This document shows, one piece after another, positions 53,793-58,733 of a DNA stretch of 60,215 nt. Where the stretch lies: positions 1 to 60,215 of IMG/VR virus record IMGVR_UViG_3300013131_003128. The stretch is one strand, 5' to 3'. The notes beneath the pieces are model-generated. The model ran no database searches. It had not been told where the DNA came from and saw only the letters and a program-made list of their open reading frames with translations. This DNA comes from a virus (Duplodnaviria > Caudoviricetes). Each line of letters opens with the position of its first letter. Positions within the stretch are counted from its first letter, which is position 1. The position numbers and the translations under genes were made by a program.

Positions 53793-54800
53793 ATGTTTAA
53801 AAAAGCAGCAGTCTTTACTGACATACATTTTGGTTTAAAGAGCAACAGTGTGATTCACAATCAGGACTGTGAAGAATTTGTGGACTGGTACATTGATCAG
53901 GCCAAACAAAACCAATGCGAAACTGGCATATTCTGTGGTGATTGGCATCACAATAGAAATTCATTAAACTTGATGACCATGGATGTGTCCATCAAGTGTT
54001 TGGAAAAGTTGGGCAAGGCATTTGAAAAATTTTATTTCTTCCCTGGTAATCACGATCTGTACTACAAAGACAAGCGTGATATTCACTCAGTGGAGTTTGC
54101 AAGATTCATTCCTGGGATCAATGTGATCACAGAGACCACCACCATAGATGACACAACCTTGGTGCCTTGGTTGGTGGGAGATGAATACAAACAGATTAAA
54201 AAAATCAAAAGCAGATACATGTTTGGACATTTTGAATTGCCACACTTCTTAATGAATGCCATGATAGAAATGCCAGACACTGGATTGATACAGACTGCAG
54301 ACTTTGTGCATCCAGAATATGTGTTCACAGGTCATTTCCACAAGAGACAAACAGCAAAAAACATACATTACATTGGCAATCCCATGCCACACAACTATGC
54401 AGATGTGAATGATGATCAGCGTGGCATGATGATCATGGAACATGGTGGCACTCCCAGATACATCAATTGGTACAACTGCCCTAGATATTTGAAAGTCAAT
54501 CTCAGTGAGCTGTTGAATGATGCCAAAAACATTATTAAACCTAAAATGCATTTGCAGGTCACTCTGGACATAGACATCAGCTATGAAGAAGCCAGTTTTA
54601 TCAAAGAAACTTTCATCAAAGATTACAACTGTAGAGAAATTGTGCTGATTCCTGGCAAGAAAGATGATGAAATGACCAGCACGTTGGATATCACACGTTT
54701 TGAATCTGTGGATGAGATAGTTAGCAAAGAAATCAATGCCATAGAATCCGACAGCTACAACAAAAACACACTGTTGGAAATTTACAGGGATCTACAATGA
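53793..54800 (+). CDS. Recombination endonuclease subunit (T4 gp47/Mre11/SbcD-like)
   Basis: Metallophosphoesterase motifs TDIHFG, GDWHH, GNHD, GHF, GHFH. Confidence 0.92.
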   Translation: MFKKAAVFTDIHFGLKSNSVIHNQDCEEFVDWYIDQAKQNQCETGIFCGDWHHNRNSLNLMTMDVSIKCLEKLGKAFEKFYFFPGNHDLYYKDKRDIHSVEFARFIPGINVITETTTIDDTTLVPWLVGDEYKQIKKIKSRYMFGHFELPHFLMNAMIEMPDTGLIQTADFVHPEYVFTGHFHKRQTAKNIHYIGNPMPHNYADVNDDQRGMMIMEHGGTPRYINWYNCPRYLKVNLSELLNDAKNIIKPKMHLQVTLDIDISYEEASFIKETFIKDYNCREIVLIPGKKDDEMTSTLDITRFESVDEIVSKEINAIESDSYNKNTLLEIYRDLQ

Positions 54801-56575
54801 TAAAGATCAAAAGTCTCACAGTTAAAAATTTCATGAGTGTGGGCAATCAAACACAGGGTGTGATGCTGGACAAACAAAGACTCACATTGGTGCTGGGTGA
54901 AAATTTGGATCAGGGAGGAGATGATGCTGGCAGCAGAAACGGCACTGGTAAAACCACACTGATCAACGCACTGAGTTATGGACTGTTTGGTGAAGCATTA
55001 ACAAAAATACGCAGAGAAAATTTGGTCAACAAGACCAACAACAAAAACATGTTGGTCACACTGACTTTTGAAAAAGATGGTGTGAAATATCGCATTGAGA
55101 GGGGCAGACGTCCCAACACACTGAGATACTTTATCAATGACAGTGAGCAGGAAATCACTGACGAGAGTCAAGGCGACAGCAGAATGACTCAGGCAGCTAT
55201 CAATCACATGTTGGGCTTATCACATGCCATGTTCAAACACATATTGGCATTGAATACGTACACTGAACCTTTTTTGAGCATGAGCGCCAATGATCAAAAA
55301 GACATCATAGAACAGTTGTTGGGTATCACACTGCTGAGTGAAAAAGCAGAACTGTTGAAAGATCGCATTAGAGTCAGCAAAGAAGATATGGCCATGGAAA
55401 ATGCTCGTTTGGAAGGTATCAAAATGAGCAATGAAAAGATCAAAGAAACCATCAACTCCTTGAGCAACAAAGAAAAAATTTGGAACACACAAAAAAACTT
55501 GGACATAGAAAAACTGAATAAATCCATCAAGGAACTGGAGTCTGTGGACATTGACCGAGAGTTGGTCACACATCAACAGTTGGAAGATTGGCTCAAAATC
55601 AATAATGAATTGAAACAATTGCAAAAAGATCGCAGCAGTTTGGAAATGACGCTGCTGCAGGCAGACAAAACAGTTAATAAAGTAGGCAATGACTTAGACA
55701 AACTGCATGACAAAGCCACTTGTTATGCCTGTGGTCAGGAATTGCACAATGATAAATTTTGTGAAATACAACGCAAGTTGGAAGAAGAATATGGTGAAGC
55801 CGTCAACTACAATCAAAGCATACAGGCTGAAATGGCCATGATAGATGAAGCCATCAAACTCATGGGCACACAAAGCACACGTCCAGACACATACTATGAC
55901 AGCATCAAAGAAGCATATGAACACAGGCAACATCTAGAAACTTACAAAAGCACACTGAAAAACAAACAAGCAGAACAAAATCCTTATGTGGATCAAATCA
56001 CTGAACTCAGCACAGAAGCACTGCAAGAATTGGACTGGAGCGAAGTGAATCGTTTGCAAACACTCAAAGATCATCAAGAATTTTTATTAAAATTGTTGAC
56101 CAACAAAGACAGTTTTATCAGAAAGAAAATCATAGATCAGAATTTGGCTTTTTTAAACAACAGACTCACACACTATCTCTCAGCATTGGGATTACCGCAC
56201 ACAGTGACTTTCAAAAACGATTTGAGTGTGCAAATCACCATGTTGGGTCAAGAACTTGACTTTGACAATCTCAGCAGAGGTGAGCGCAATAGATTGATAT
56301 TGGGATTGAGCTTTGCATTTAGAGATGTGTGGGAAAGTTTGTATCAAGAAATCAATCTGTTGTTCATAGATGAATTGATTGATTCTGGTTTGGACACAGC
56401 GGGTGTGGAATCATCCATAGCCATACTGAAACGCATGAGCAGAGAGCGTGGCAAGAGCATATATCTGATCAGCCACAGAGATGAACTCATGGGTAGGGTC
56501 AACAACACACTGAAAGTGATCAAAGAAAATGGATTCACTTCCTACAGCAATTCAACTGAATTTCACGAGATATAG
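54797..56575 (+). CDS. Recombination ATPase subunit (T4 gp46/Rad50/SbcC-like)
   Basis: KNFMS, Walker A NGTGKT, coiled coil with CYAC zinc hook, LSRGE signature, Walker B LFIDE, ISH. Confidence 0.93.
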   Translation: MIKIKSLTVKNFMSVGNQTQGVMLDKQRLTLVLGENLDQGGDDAGSRNGTGKTTLINALSYGLFGEALTKIRRENLVNKTNNKNMLVTLTFEKDGVKYRIERGRRPNTLRYFINDSEQEITDESQGDSRMTQAAINHMLGLSHAMFKHILALNTYTEPFLSMSANDQKDIIEQLLGITLLSEKAELLKDRIRVSKEDMAMENARLEGIKMSNEKIKETINSLSNKEKIWNTQKNLDIEKLNKSIKELESVDIDRELVTHQQLEDWLKINNELKQLQKDRSSLEMTLLQADKTVNKVGNDLDKLHDKATCYACGQELHNDKFCEIQRKLEEEYGEAVNYNQSIQAEMAMIDEAIKLMGTQSTRPDTYYDSIKEAYEHRQHLETYKSTLKNKQAEQNPYVDQITELSTEALQELDWSEVNRLQTLKDHQEFLLKLLTNKDSFIRKKIIDQNLAFLNNRLTHYLSALGLPHTVTFKNDLSVQITMLGQELDFDNLSRGERNRLILGLSFAFRDVWESLYQEINLLFIDELIDSGLDTAGVESSIAILKRMSRERGKSIYLISHRDELMGRVNNTLKVIKENGFTSYSNSTEFHEI

Positions 56576-56583
56576 GAGCACAC

Positions 56584-56784
56584 ATGGACGACACACATGA
56601 TTTACTGACCAAGGCCTACATGAACTATTTCAAATACAATGAAAAGTTTGCCAAAAGACCCAGCCGTCAGAGCAAAATACAGGCCAGAAAATGGTTGAGT
56701 GAAATACGCAAATTGGGTCGCACACGCCGAGCAGAAATTGTGCAGGAATACAAACAGCACAAAGAAAAGAATCGCAGCCAGTAG
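56584..56784 (+). CDS. Small basic helical protein (possibly Hc1/histone-H1-like DNA binder)
   Basis: 66 aa, AGGAG SD, K/R-rich ARKWLSEIRKLGRTRRAEI. Confidence 0.55.
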   Translation: MDDTHDLLTKAYMNYFKYNEKFAKRPSRQSKIQARKWLSEIRKLGRTRRAEIVQEYKQHKEKNRSQ

Positions 56785-56866
56785 CACGGCGCAGCCGCTG
56801 CGGCTCACGCTACAGTTTGTACGAAGTACAAAGCTGCGGCACAAAAAATTTTCTGGCTCTTCACAC

Positions 56867-56899
56867 TACCAAAATATCTAATTCATTACCAAAATATCT
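56867..56899 (+). repeat. Direct repeat TACCAAAATATCT x2 (20-bp period)
   Basis: Exact 13-mers at 56867-56879 and 56887-56899. Confidence 0.85.
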
Positions 56900-56949
56900 C
56901 TTAGATCCAAGACTCTGCAGGATGAAATCTCACTCGCGTAAGTAATGGC

Positions 56950-57384
56950 ATGTCATGGATGTATCAAGGTGCTCCCATAGAATCACTGCCGGTGGGCACA
57001 GTGGGATTTGTGTATCTCATCACCAATCGCGCCACAGGACGCAAGTATGTGGGCAAGAAATTAGCACAGTTCCGCAAATCACGTCCACCTTTGAAAGGAC
57101 GCCACAATCGCCGTCGCAGTGTGGTGGAGAGTGACTGGCGAGACTACTGGGGCAGCAATGATGTGCTGATGCAGGATGTGCAACGTTTGGGAGCGGATCA
57201 ATTCACACGTGAAATACTGTACATCTGTCGCAGCCGCGGTGTCATGGGATATCTGGAGGCTCTGGAACAGTTTGAACGTGGAGTGCTGGAATCTGATGAA
57301 TACTACAATGGCATCATCAATGTGAGAATAGGCAGCAGCAATTTATTGAGAGAAGAAATCCAAAGGCTCAAGGCAAAAACATAG
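56950..57384 (+). CDS. Minimal GIY-YIG family endonuclease
   Basis: GFVYLITN...KYVGKK (GIY-YIG), YWGS, REIL, LEALEQ, YYN; no C-terminal DNA-binding extension. Confidence 0.8.
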   Translation: MSWMYQGAPIESLPVGTVGFVYLITNRATGRKYVGKKLAQFRKSRPPLKGRHNRRRSVVESDWRDYWGSNDVLMQDVQRLGADQFTREILYICRSRGVMGYLEALEQFERGVLESDEYYNGIINVRIGSSNLLREEIQRLKAKT

Positions 57385-57670
57385 CAACACTGCAGATCGT
57401 GAGATCCAGGAAATGCGTCTTGCAAAGATGGTGAATCCTGAGTTGCACCGTGAGGCAAAACGATGGTGCTCTGTGAAACAGACACAACACCCACACAGAT
57501 CAGTGGCTTGAACCGCTGATCCCGTGTTCCGTAGCAATGAAGTCAGCCATAGGGGGTATAGGGCTACCGCCCCTGAGTTGCGTGGCTGTTCAAGATGGCA
57601 GGCTCATCTCGTATGACGTGACCACTTCTCCCGATTCTGGGAGAAGTATGGATGCGCTATCTGTATGAGC
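57384..57670 (+). ncRNA. Putative highly structured non-coding RNA (unclassified)
   Basis: No credible ORF; about 8 nested stems, two GUGA (GNRA) loops and G-U wobble pairs favouring the plus strand (detail in findings). Confidence 0.6.
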
Positions 57671-57675
57671 GAGCA

Positions 57676-57745
57676 GTTGCTTCGCAACCGAATTTATTCC
57701 AACAGTGAGAGCGCAGCGATCACTTGGACGAACTTGGTTCGTCCA
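57676..57745. other. Cluster of three short-loop hairpins at the convergence of transcription units
   Basis: GTTGC-TTC-GCAAC (57676-57688); AGTGA-GA-GC-GCA-GC-GA-TCACT (57704-57724); TGGACGAAC-TTG-GTTCGTCCA (57725-57745). Confidence 0.75.
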
Positions 57746-57874
57746 CTACTTGTGTTTGGGATCACGTGAGCTGCGCTGTCTTTTGAGTTGATCTTGCTCG
57801 TCACTGTGCCAAATGTGCCAAGCCACCAAAATCACCACCAGCATTGTGGCAATGTTTAAAATAATGTTTATCAT
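57746..57874 (-). CDS. Small single-pass membrane protein (42 aa)
   Basis: MINIILNIATMLVVILVAWHIW plus charged tail; GGAGG SD; ATGA overlap with the upstream ORF. Confidence 0.55.
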   Translation of the reverse strand: MINIILNIATMLVVILVAWHIWHSDEQDQLKRQRSSRDPKHK

Positions 57875-58485
57875 GATATTGTGTCCTCCGTGGTTGGGTT
57901 GGTCAGCGATTTGAGTGCCTGTGCAGCGTCCTGCGGCAGGTTGGGATCGAATTCTGTGACTGACTGCCACAGATTTTCTTGCGCGGGTGCTGATCGCACC
58001 CTGTAGAGGTCAGTGTGAGGCCAAGATCTCACCTGCAGTGCCTGCAGCACAGCATGACTGTACACATGCACACTCTGAGGCTGCATGTGGATCAATCTGT
58101 CTATGTTGGCATGATTCAACACACTGTGATAGGTTTGAATTTCAGTCACTAGATTATCATCAGCAAAGTTTCTGGCAAATTGGTTGCCGCGCAGCCACGT
58201 GGTGGCTGAATCAATCACCACATCCTCTGCTCTCAGTCTGCAGCGTATGCGTGAGAAGCCCATGTGTCTCAATCGCTCTGCGGTGTGACGTCCCACACAC
58301 TGTATGGGTTGATTCAATAATTCTGTGATGGCATGTTGATAGTGTTGTATGGCCGCAATGTGTGTGATCAGCAAGGGTTGAGTCACAGCAGCCACATGCG
58401 CCACTGCCTCAGTGGTGACACAGGGCATCCACATGTCCCCGTCCGGTATGGTGTGATTCACGTTGCTCTGTGTGTACACTCTCAT
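57871..58485 (-). CDS. Uroporphyrinogen-III synthase (HemD)-like protein
   Basis: CVGRHTAERLRHMGF resembles the HemD AVGxxTAxxLxxxGF motif; WLRG and EIQTYHS also align; short and divergent. Confidence 0.5.
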   Translation of the reverse strand: MRVYTQSNVNHTIPDGDMWMPCVTTEAVAHVAAVTQPLLITHIAAIQHYQHAITELLNQPIQCVGRHTAERLRHMGFSRIRCRLRAEDVVIDSATTWLRGNQFARNFADDNLVTEIQTYHSVLNHANIDRLIHMQPQSVHVYSHAVLQALQVRSWPHTDLYRVRSAPAQENLWQSVTEFDPNLPQDAAQALKSLTNPTTEDTIS

Positions 58486-58556
58486 CGTAAGATTATTTAA
58501 CGGCAGCGTGGTTGTATTAAAATATATTATTTGGTTTCTGATGCCGTGCTGGGCTG

Positions 58557-58733
58557 TTAAAAGAATGGCATGCCGGTCTTTTTGGCAGTTTCTAGGTTTT
58601 CTTTGATGATACGGCCTATGATTTCACGATCTTCATAGCTGATCATGAACAGATCCTCCAAACTCATGCTGCCCCGCATGTACCAGGCCATTTTGAACAG
58701 ATCCATTTTGAAATTTTTGGTTTCGTTCTCCAT
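58557..58733 (-). CDS. gp51-like baseplate hub/tail assembly protein (probably the C-terminal part of a -1 frameshift fusion)
   Basis: Not in the ORF track. Manual translation: MENETKNFKMDLFKMAWYMRGSMSLEDLFMISYEDREIIGRIIKENLETAKKTGMPFF. Frame is open upstream to 58802. Confidence 0.7.
   Translation of the reverse strand: MENETKNFKMDLFKMAWYMRGSMSLEDLFMISYEDREIIGRIIKENLETAKKTGMPFF

Follow-up and report, generated by a model that had tools for sequence, protein, structure and literature searches.

Comparable orphan RNAs lying beside nucleases or recombinases have later proved to be guide RNAs, and the Seg enzymes of phage T4 are free-standing GIY-YIG homing endonucleases. The described RNA closest to the one considered here is the Methylobacterium-1 motif (RF01712 in Rfam), which Weinberg et al (2010; PMC2864571) list, from Methylobacterium and marine sequence, as an RNA that is not cis-regulatory and not a switch; no functional study of it was returned by a full-text search on its name. 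The present analysis concerns a structured RNA encoded on the plus strand at 57384-57690 of a 60,215-nucleotide (nt) stretch of viral DNA (Caudoviricetes; IMG/VR record IMGVR_UViG_3300013131_003128, positions 1 to 60,215), called the window throughout, where it directly follows the gene of a small GIY-YIG nuclease. This RNA is genuine and conserved, and it contains two pseudoknots. Judged by sequence comparison, it is a phage-borne, extended relative of RF01712 with an undescribed 3' half. With a probability of roughly 0.6, the locus is a structured non-coding RNA gene of about 250-300 nt that has the nuclease as a neighbour by synteny and that, we infer, acts in trans.

The original prediction, made from the window alone, was that the stop codon of the 144-residue GIY-YIG open reading frame (ORF) is followed directly by about 290 nt of highly structured non-coding RNA, the two forming a candidate nuclease-RNA system. 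As an observation it holds for the most part, and comparison gives the RNA stronger support than a single sequence could show. Relatives were gathered from viral contigs by a protein-seeded scan (600 matched stretches, 584 relatives, 80 kept) and by a second scan seeded by an 18-nt motif of the RNA alone, which gave at least 120 stretches. In blastn comparisons conservation crosses the stop codon and ends near 57668-57672, even where the protein is only 66-70% identical. Conservation downstream of homologues, which the prediction entailed, is seen in 65 of the 69 loci of close GIY-YIG homologues with at least 350 nt of sequence after the gene. Iterated nhmmer finds the element in 55 of the 80 protein-seeded loci, the whole element is present in 118 of the 120 motif-seeded stretches among the matches listed, and overall nhmmer places it in 186 of 202 sequences. 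The region after the stop codon was confirmed to be non-coding, no ORF being kept in any frame or on either strand in six-frame translations of 13 diverse homologous stretches.

The fold was assessed on a MAFFT alignment of 76 diverse representatives (alignment A3) with a structure model of 51 pairs. Pairing is seen in 76.0% of the cells, compared with 61.0% after shuffling and 41-55% when the partners are slid, and the covariation score is 0.468, compared with 0.200 for shuffled alignments (none of 500 reaches 0.468) and 0.11-0.20 for slid partners. The minimum free energy of the single plus-strand sequence is -108.7 kcal/mol as against -95.4 +/- 5.6 for shuffled sequences (z -2.36), three of 100 shuffles being as good, and the minus strand folds with a z of -3.51. 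Since the single-sequence fold beats chance only mildly, it is covariation and not energy that establishes the structure; the high degree of folding ascribed to the ~290 nt stands on the former and is only mildly borne out by the latter. The reading of a plus-strand RNA that starts at the nuclease stop codon is supported, the G-U pairs fitting that strand. The RNA and its elements are listed here in order, with the type of support for each in brackets where one applies.

57384..57690, plus strand: the structured RNA in full, stop codon to terminator-like hairpin (conservation, nhmmer, covariation)
57384..57458, plus strand: clade-specific 5' domain, GCAAC/GTTGC around GATC-GTGA-GATC and CAGGA/TCCTG, then a CC-GTGA-GG hairpin
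57465..57491, plus strand: helix Pc (GGTG/CACC) around the near-invariant loop CUCUGUGAAACAGACACAA at 57469-57487 (covariation)
57493..57527, plus strand: long hairpin Pd, with its loop CUUGAA (57507-57512) serving as 5' strand of pseudoknot PK2 (covariation)
57531..57567, plus strand: pseudoknot PK1, GUAGC 57531-57535 pairing with a loop segment of the inner Pe hairpin, GCUAC 57563-57567
57544..57588, plus strand: Pe domain, outer CAGCC/GGCUG and inner GGGG/CCCC (covariation)
57589..57598, plus strand: 3' strand of PK2, UUCAAG (57589-57594), then a conserved AUGG (covariation)
57605..57617, plus strand: repeat element R1 (CAUCUCGUAUGAC), with the variable word GUAUGA at 57611-57616 (shared word, identity covariation)
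57624..57651, plus strand: hairpin Ph (ACUUCUCCC/GGGAGAAGU) at 57624-57647, then AUGG (covariation)
57657..57669, plus strand: repeat element R2 (CUAUCUGUAUGAG), with the same variable word as R1 (shared word, permutation control)
57676..57688, plus strand: terminal hairpin GUUGC-UUC-GCAAC, then CGAAUUUAUU; terminator-like, the probable 3' end (terminator scan)

In alignment A3, PK1 is 97.9% paired with double changes at four of its five pairs, and it contains the top canonical pair of the mutual-information scan. PK2 is 79% paired, shows double changes at all six pairs and appears in the same scan as columns 135-139 of the hidden Markov model (HMM) coupled to columns 224-228. Helix Pc is 90% paired (double changes at four of five pairs), most columns of its loop are invariant, and in a bacterial relative (L317) this part of the RNA corresponds to RF01712. 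Hairpin Ph, drawn in the original prediction as the 9-bp stem ACTTCTCCC/GGGAGAAGT, is 86% paired with double changes at eight of its nine pairs. The stem GATCAGTGG/CCGCTGATC at 57498-57521 was upheld: within Pd, where double changes occur at all 12 pairs, 86% pairing is seen in its outer extension, and the inner helix reaches 59% in a gappy alignment, with double changes at eight of eight pairs. Both helices of the Pe domain stand, the outer CAGCC/GGCTG stem at 62% paired and the inner GGGG/CCCC stem at 74% with few double changes. The GATC-GTGA-GATC stem of the 5' domain is supported by a compensatory change to GATA/TATC in alignment A1; this domain is restricted to relatives whose nhmmer match begins at model position 1, and other clades carry different hairpins in its place. 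Three further stems of the prediction fell away. The GCTCAT and ATGAGC segments belong to two direct repeats and not to an inverted pair; in place of TCTGT-GAA-ACAGA most relatives read GAAAAAGA, which is part of the near-invariant loop; and the proposed GGTA...TACC pairing gives way to PK1, in which GCTAC 57563-57567 pairs with GTAGC 57531-57535 (98% paired). Neither pseudoknot, nor the twin repeats described below, was in that list of stems. Two other candidates are not part of the model: a Pg hairpin (UCAU/AUGA), which is only 50% paired and is not claimed, and a Pi pairing (CCGU/UAUGG) from RNAalifold, which overlaps PK1, consists mostly of invariant pairs and was not adopted.

The signal between R1 and R2 is second only to PK1 in the mutual-information scan and is one of column identity, with a mutual information of 1.21 and 0% canonical pairs. 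Each element consists of UCU(C) followed by a word, about 11-13 nt in all, and is predicted to be single-stranded. The words differ among lineages (ACAUGAU, GAAUAAU, ACGAAAU, AGUACA, GCCACAU, AUAGCAG and others) and are equal at the two sites of one RNA: an exact word of 6-9 nt is common to R1 and R2 in 104 of 107 representatives, all less than 92% identical to one another, and over nine aligned columns R1 equals R2 in 60 of 81, compared with a mean of 5.5 and a maximum of 12 when partners are permuted. The likeness extends beyond the words. The AUGR that follows Ph mirrors the AUGR at 57595-57598 position for position (60 of 99 identical, 23.3 when permuted), and the AUGR before each element, together with the GAAGU before that (57539-57543 and 57643-57647), shows the same identity behaviour more weakly. 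Because of these repeated identities, the RNA can be seen as two copies of a module S-AUGR-linker-UCU-word, with the Pe domain inserted in the first copy.

A variable segment beside a conserved scaffold, as the original prediction had envisaged, is thus present, and present twice, but no matching target was seen in the 60-kb window. The exact complement of the twin word occurs nowhere in the window, which is only part of the genome, nor in 4.8-8 kb of three bacterial loci. Inside the RNAs themselves there is no exact reverse complement of the word, and within 600 nt there are scattered, inconsistent ones; the duplex energy of the word with the rest of its RNA is no better than that of shuffled words (mean z +0.24, 2% below -1.5). 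A symmetric R1:R2 duplex, or a k-turn or box C/D arrangement, was ruled out, many variants (GAAUAAU, ACGAAAU, GCCACAU and others) being unable to form it. Pairing of both copies with a sequence outside the RNA is our best guess for what keeps them identical.

The 18-nt motif was also scanned in one genome per prokaryote species, giving at least 120 stretches, most of them expected by chance; among the matches listed, nhmmer with a limit of E 1e-3 confirms 15 of the 124 sequences tested. Two strong hits, L290 and L323, are phage-like contigs binned into metagenome-assembled genomes (MAGs). Others lie on long bacterial contigs of Polynucleobacter, Oxalobacteraceae, Burkholderiaceae, Sphingomonadaceae, Erythrobacteraceae and Dechloromonas. 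These bacterial copies keep the same element order, including the complementarity of PK2, and the alphaproteobacterial ones carry a 9-nt twin word. The HMM built from phage sequences hits the bacterial locus L317 at 4e-11, and in the same place L317:1906-2014 matches RF01712 at 49.9 bits, where the gathering score is 40. With its 103 positions the RF01712 model reaches no further than the CCGU strand, so that it covers the 5' part of the RNA only. The window RNA stays below those 40 bits: RF01712 is not found there at the gathering threshold, nor at E up to 10 on 56500-58600, nor in eight diverse phage loci at E up to 1. Its element order, on the other hand, is present (the helix with the CUCUGWGAAAAAG loop, the long hairpin, the CCGU strand), in columns that alignment A3 shows to be invariant or covarying. 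The original prediction had named a hit in Rfam as something that would count against it; such a hit exists indirectly, through the bacterial relative, while the RNA of the window gives none itself.

The bacterial copies adjoin Phage_integrase proteins (191 and 330 residues), a serine resolvase and an HNH gene. One genome has two matches, 44 kb apart and inverted, and another has three, one possibly a duplicate record; in a sample of 151 genomes from the bacterial order concerned a single one carries the RNA. This sporadic, multicopy occurrence is the pattern of a mobile element. In the Polynucleobacter MAG (L327 and L329; G003:C27:65906-66014 on the plus and 110350-110459 on the minus strand) the two nearly identical copies, in opposite orientation and 44 kb apart, differ in setting, one following an integrase and the other having an HNH gene close by. 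Betaproteobacterial copies, L328 and L331 among them, have a conserved upstream sequence in common that contains TTGACA, noticed by eye, and the motif GAACGAAGUGAA stands about 100-150 nt beyond R2 in them and also in the phage-like contig L290. Two protein families that match nothing in Pfam are seen repeatedly in the neighbourhood of the bacterial RNA: one of 82 residues directly upstream of the RNA (L231 854-1102 and L278 4103-4351), and one of 210-252 residues with a common WFEFYKLA motif (L231 3523-4281 and a 210-residue ORF in L329).

The genes that precede the RNA in the window are the following.

54797..56575, plus strand: gp46-like (Rad50/SbcC-type) recombination nuclease subunit (phrog_77, 9.1e-100; SMC_N and AAA_23 domains)
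56584..56784, plus strand: small conserved ORF, 66 residues, between gp46 and the nuclease slot (ORF list)
56950..57384, plus strand: GIY-YIG nuclease of SegE type, 144 residues, catalytic domain alone (PF19835, phrog_447)

The minimal GIY-YIG protein of the original prediction, 144 residues with no separate DNA-binding domain, was confirmed. SegE_GIY-YIG (PF19835) matches residues 3-123 with an E-value of 9.7e-32 and 110.2 bits, where the cut-off is 25, and PHROG 447, a profile of 148 positions, matches at 6e-35; searches of Pfam and PHROG profiles gave no domain besides GIY-YIG. Alignments A2 and A4 show no variation at the catalytic positions, namely GIY (here FVY), YIG (here YVG), Arg, Glu and Asn, and the invariant columns include F20, Y22, Y33, G35, R55, E103 and N120. 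It is on the Pfam match and these invariant positions that the protein is called a GIY-YIG nuclease and that it belongs to PF19835. An AlphaFold2 model has a mean confidence (predicted local distance difference test, pLDDT) of 86. Searched with Foldseek against the PDB, the model gave no match at E up to 0.001, the best relevant one being the I-TevI catalytic domain, a weak match with a probability of 0.66 and an E-value of about 1; the single sequence had no PDB match at E up to 1, and a profile search of the PDB gave one chance match and nothing else. T4 endonuclease II (DenA), considered as a possible relative since distant homologues follow nrdA/nrdB, was dropped, no search supporting it. 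GenBank has 627 phage records with a homologue, the majority of them from cyanophages and the majority labelled 'NAD synthetase'. That label on the short GIY-YIG family (PHROG 447) looks like a propagated misannotation, since the Pfam match indicates a GIY-YIG nuclease.

Whether the RNA belongs to this nuclease can be judged from the gene that lies directly upstream of it. Among the 120 motif-seeded loci listed that gene is GIY-YIG in 71 and PDDEXK_15 in 16, with something else or nothing in 27, a truncated locus in four and no RNA in two. The PDDEXK_15 protein, identified by PF24608 at 4.5e-28, has a PD-(D/E)XK fold, unrelated to GIY-YIG; both families are known as DNA nucleases. The two genes exclude each other, both being present in one locus, GIY-YIG only in 164 and PD-(D/E)XK only in 18. 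In 82 of the 118 RNA-carrying motif-seeded loci listed the RNA is preceded, on its own strand, by the C-terminus of gp46, and in these 82 the slot before the RNA holds GIY-YIG in 66, PD-(D/E)XK in 15 and neither in one; the predominant gene order among related loci is gp47, gp46, small ORF, nuclease, RNA. Outside this block the picture is a different one. Among the loci listed that have at least 2.5 kb of upstream sequence and no gp46, 12 of 13 have neither nuclease adjoining the RNA; a phosphorylase-family protein and family-less proteins are among those encoded upstream of it in such loci. The same R words occur beside GIY-YIG, PD-(D/E)XK and other upstream genes. GIY-YIG homologues of five cultured phages (Melnitz, P-TIM68, ACG-2014f, S-SRM01 and phiN3), 37-57% identical to the window protein (alignment A2), have no RNA nearby by nhmmer, and in two of the five the next coding sequence lies within 30 nt of the GIY-YIG gene, leaving no room for one.

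In at least seven of the 27 loci with another or no gene directly upstream, GIY-YIG lies further upstream with another ORF between. Such extra ORFs, seen in L101, L109, L128, L138, L152, L159 and L160, encode, for example, a methyltransferase (L138) and family-less proteins of 238-356 residues, and indicate that the junction accepts insertions.

As an unrelated nuclease can fill the slot and the RNA stands alone elsewhere, we regard the RNA as a synteny neighbour and not a dedicated cofactor, and the adjacency of GIY-YIG gene and RNA in the window is, on comparison of these loci, synteny within one phage group. The slot itself hardly ever stands empty, and two different folds can occupy it. 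The two nucleases found there, next to gp46/gp47, are for this reason probably exchangeable enzymes of recombination or DNA processing and not homing endonucleases.

Under the reading of a synteny-linked RNA that acts in trans, the RNA would be the tail of the operon transcript or be processed from it, and its pseudoknotted scaffold would present the two identical elements, each a UCU(C) with a variable word of 6-9 nt, in single-stranded form. The twin elements would then base-pair with two copies of a complementary RNA or single-stranded DNA outside the RNA. A number of points weigh against this reading. RNA and nuclease stand together in 81 of the 82 gp46-linked loci listed, and comparison alone leaves room for a functional link between them within the gp46 block; the bacterial relatives are again found beside DNA-cutting or DNA-joining enzymes, which is perhaps more than coincidence. 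The window RNA lies under every Rfam threshold, its homology to RF01712 running through intermediates. The twin elements are only partly identical in the betaproteobacterial copies, base-pairing in trans is itself a step that we infer, and the 60-kb part of the genome in the window holds no target for it; R1 and R2 could also be kept identical by a partner protein, by a switch between alternative folds or by a role at the DNA level. Contigs from RNA libraries, considered next, attest presence and neither transcription nor ends.

These contigs, from four runs in three studies and 88-99% alike, cover 57125-57599 and 57583-57825, and three run across the stop codon at 57384; the gaps in the coverage (56823-57109 and beyond 57847) are uninformative. 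They fit the co-transcription of nuclease and RNA that the original prediction proposed, with carry-over of DNA as another possible source. At the 3' end the stem of the terminal hairpin covaries and its UUCG loop is kept (A1, columns 362-376). Both features, structure that runs from the stop codon to a terminator-like hairpin and contigs that bridge ORF and RNA, would be expected of a cis-acting element in the 3' untranslated region that stabilises, terminates or switches the gp47-gp46-nuclease transcript. The segments of like sequence could also compete with one another, GAAGU at 57539-57543 and at 57643-57647 both fitting the 5' strand of Ph and AUGG occurring twice. We consider such an element unlikely, since the RNA is also found after unrelated genes or without a co-oriented gene upstream, the bacterial copies have their own common TTGACA-containing upstream sequence (by eye), and a double pseudoknot with near-invariant loops exceeds the needs of a stabiliser or terminator.

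The first idea of the original prediction was a ribonucleoprotein. Extended to the present data, that reading would make the RNA the scaffold or guide of the nuclease, GIY-YIG or PD-(D/E)XK, with the twin words specifying the nucleic acid that is cut. What speaks for it is the nuclease gene directly upstream (81 of 82 gp46-linked loci listed, 65 of 69 loci of close GIY-YIG homologues), the existence of a variable word on a conserved scaffold, and the integrase, resolvase or HNH genes beside the bacterial relatives. The comparison goes against it in several ways. The RNA stays homologous, with the same R words, when PD-(D/E)XK replaces GIY-YIG, and the same words are found beside unrelated genes; neither nuclease adjoins it in 12 of the 13 loci listed outside the gp46 block; and of the GIY-YIG homologues in 627 phage records the five inspected, from cultured phages, are without it. 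The proteins are moreover of 144-180 residues with a single catalytic domain, and the variable word has only 6-9 nt and no local target was found. A ribonucleoprotein is on these grounds improbable.

Genes for tRNA and transfer-messenger RNA (tmRNA) attract selfish and recombination genes, and the RNA gene might in the same way be a conserved sequence at which homing-type nucleases settle in phages and integrases in bacteria. The genes directly upstream do come from four or five unrelated families of DNA enzymes (GIY-YIG, PD-(D/E)XK, tyrosine integrases, serine resolvase, HNH), and the Pfam family of the window protein is named for the Seg homing enzymes of T4. A landing site nevertheless seems improbable to the same degree as the ribonucleoprotein: sporadic homing genes would leave many slots empty, where 81 of the 82 gp46-linked loci listed are filled, the 144-residue protein has no DNA-binding domain, and the bacterial RNA, sporadic (one of 151 genomes) and multicopy, resembles cargo and not a fixed chromosomal target.

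A more speculative proposal, to which we give somewhat less credence still, makes the RNA a programmable adaptor whose two copies of the guide word bring together two identical nucleic-acid sites for the neighbouring enzymes. The sites would be acted on by GIY-YIG or PD-(D/E)XK beside gp46/gp47 in phages and by integrases, resolvase or HNH in the bacterial elements. If true, this would be RNA-directed recombination or cleavage of a new kind, independent of any one protein family.

The second idea of the original prediction, an origin or primer RNA whose persistent hybrid beside the recombination genes primes replication, has the adjoining gp46/gp47 region and a repeated short word compatible with re-annealing of a nascent strand in its favour, but it is very improbable given that covariation with G-U pairs and loop-to-strand pseudoknots points to a folded free RNA, that the RNA also occurs in non-replicative contexts and bacterial islands, and that no polymerase or reverse transcriptase was noticed in the surrounding ORF listings, most neighbours in which were not Pfam-scanned.

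The window is a fragment of a T4-like phage genome, and the stretch is present in DNA runs from freshwater and lake metagenomes. The gp46-like gene at 54797..56575 is the upstream anchor of the conserved block. The 66-residue ORF at 56584..56784 belongs to a cluster ('s78') of 76 members that precedes the nuclease gene in most loci, and has no match in Pfam or PHROG. On the 3' side of the RNA the genes are convergent, with a small membrane-like ORF ending at 57746, a 204-residue ORF and a baseplate-hub gene. The small ORF (57746-57884, minus strand) has a single hydrophobic helix and adjoins the family-less 204-residue ORF (57871-58485, minus strand), which by eye appears to belong to a cluster ('p189') with 33 members in related loci, often convergent to the RNA. 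The GIY-YIG gene, the RNA and these two minus-strand ORFs together lie in an island of higher G+C content (56950-58500, about 0.50 compared with about 0.40 in the flanks). Between the 66-residue ORF and the GIY-YIG start there are exact 13-nt direct repeats, TACCAAAATATCT, at 56867-56879 and 56887-56899, 20 nt apart, and just 5' of them, at about 56790-56850, a palindromic G+C-rich stretch followed by an A/T run. The repeats and the palindrome with its A/T run could be terminator and promoter elements of the nuclease-RNA unit.

As the original prediction had it, the RNA carries no tRNA, tmRNA or intron signature: ARAGORN found no tRNA or tmRNA gene in the window, and Rfam gave no match at gathering thresholds over the whole window and, at E up to 10 on 56500-58600, a chance DnaX match alone (56741-56803, E 3). 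A group I intron with a homing gene is also not indicated by the locus, where the upstream ORF is small and complete, the downstream genes are convergent on the minus strand and Rfam is silent. Nor does it resemble a type III toxin-antitoxin RNA, which has whole units repeated in tandem upstream of the gene of an endoribonuclease toxin: it lies downstream of the nuclease gene, its repeats are limited to short words, and the nuclease families are those of DNA nucleases. The window stretch and two other representatives of the RNA have no blastn match among 50,697 GenBank phage records. In the literature nothing relevant was found on a GIY-YIG-associated RNA, as far as the sources could be searched; a catalogue of more than 10,000 viral candidate RNAs (PMC10690425) may contain the motif.

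The orphan Rfam motif of 2010 is accordingly the 5' part of a far larger, doubly pseudoknotted RNA, which is common in uncultured aquatic T4-like phages (at least 120 stretches in the viral scan) and also rides on bacterial mobile elements. The identical, lineage-variable single-stranded words give a concrete and testable handle on its function. The locus also illustrates that tight adjacency of gene and RNA in phages can be plain synteny, and the mutual exclusion of GIY-YIG and PD-(D/E)XK genes next to gp46/gp47 suggests that the recombination module of these phages has nucleases that can replace one another.

Compared with known systems, the window RNA has in common with RF01712 a leading hairpin, helix Pc with its CUCUGAGAAAAAGCAA loop, Pd and the CCGU strand, in the same order. 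It differs in being about 150 nt longer, with PK1, Pe, PK2, Ph and the twin R elements, and the phage RNAs carry clade-specific 5' domains. The window protein is like the Seg-type homing endonucleases of T4 in that its catalytic domain matches PF19835 and its gene lies in a T4-like phage. Unlike them it has 144 residues, 3-123 of which are covered by the profile, with no C-terminal DNA-binding domain, and its gene is near-constant in its slot (of the 82 gp46-linked loci listed 66 carry it and 15 carry PD-(D/E)XK, so that 81 are filled) where theirs is sporadically present and absent; by these features it does not fit that class.

As with the HEARO RNAs of IscB and the omega RNAs of TnpB, a structured RNA of a few hundred nucleotides lies by a small nuclease gene in mobile DNA and carries a variable segment on a scaffold. 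The locus does not fit either class, having no Rfam match and no IscB or TnpB gene, only GIY-YIG or PDDEXK_15 as neighbouring nuclease. Here, moreover, the nuclease is interchangeable and often absent, and the word is internal, duplicated and 6-9 nt long where theirs is a terminal guide of about 16-20 nt. The bridge RNA of IS110 offers the nearest likeness to the twin elements, as a folded RNA beside a DNA recombination enzyme that shows two short programmable segments. No DEDD recombinase gene is seen near the RNA described here; its two segments are identical and do not specify two different partners, and the enzymes near it come from several unrelated families.

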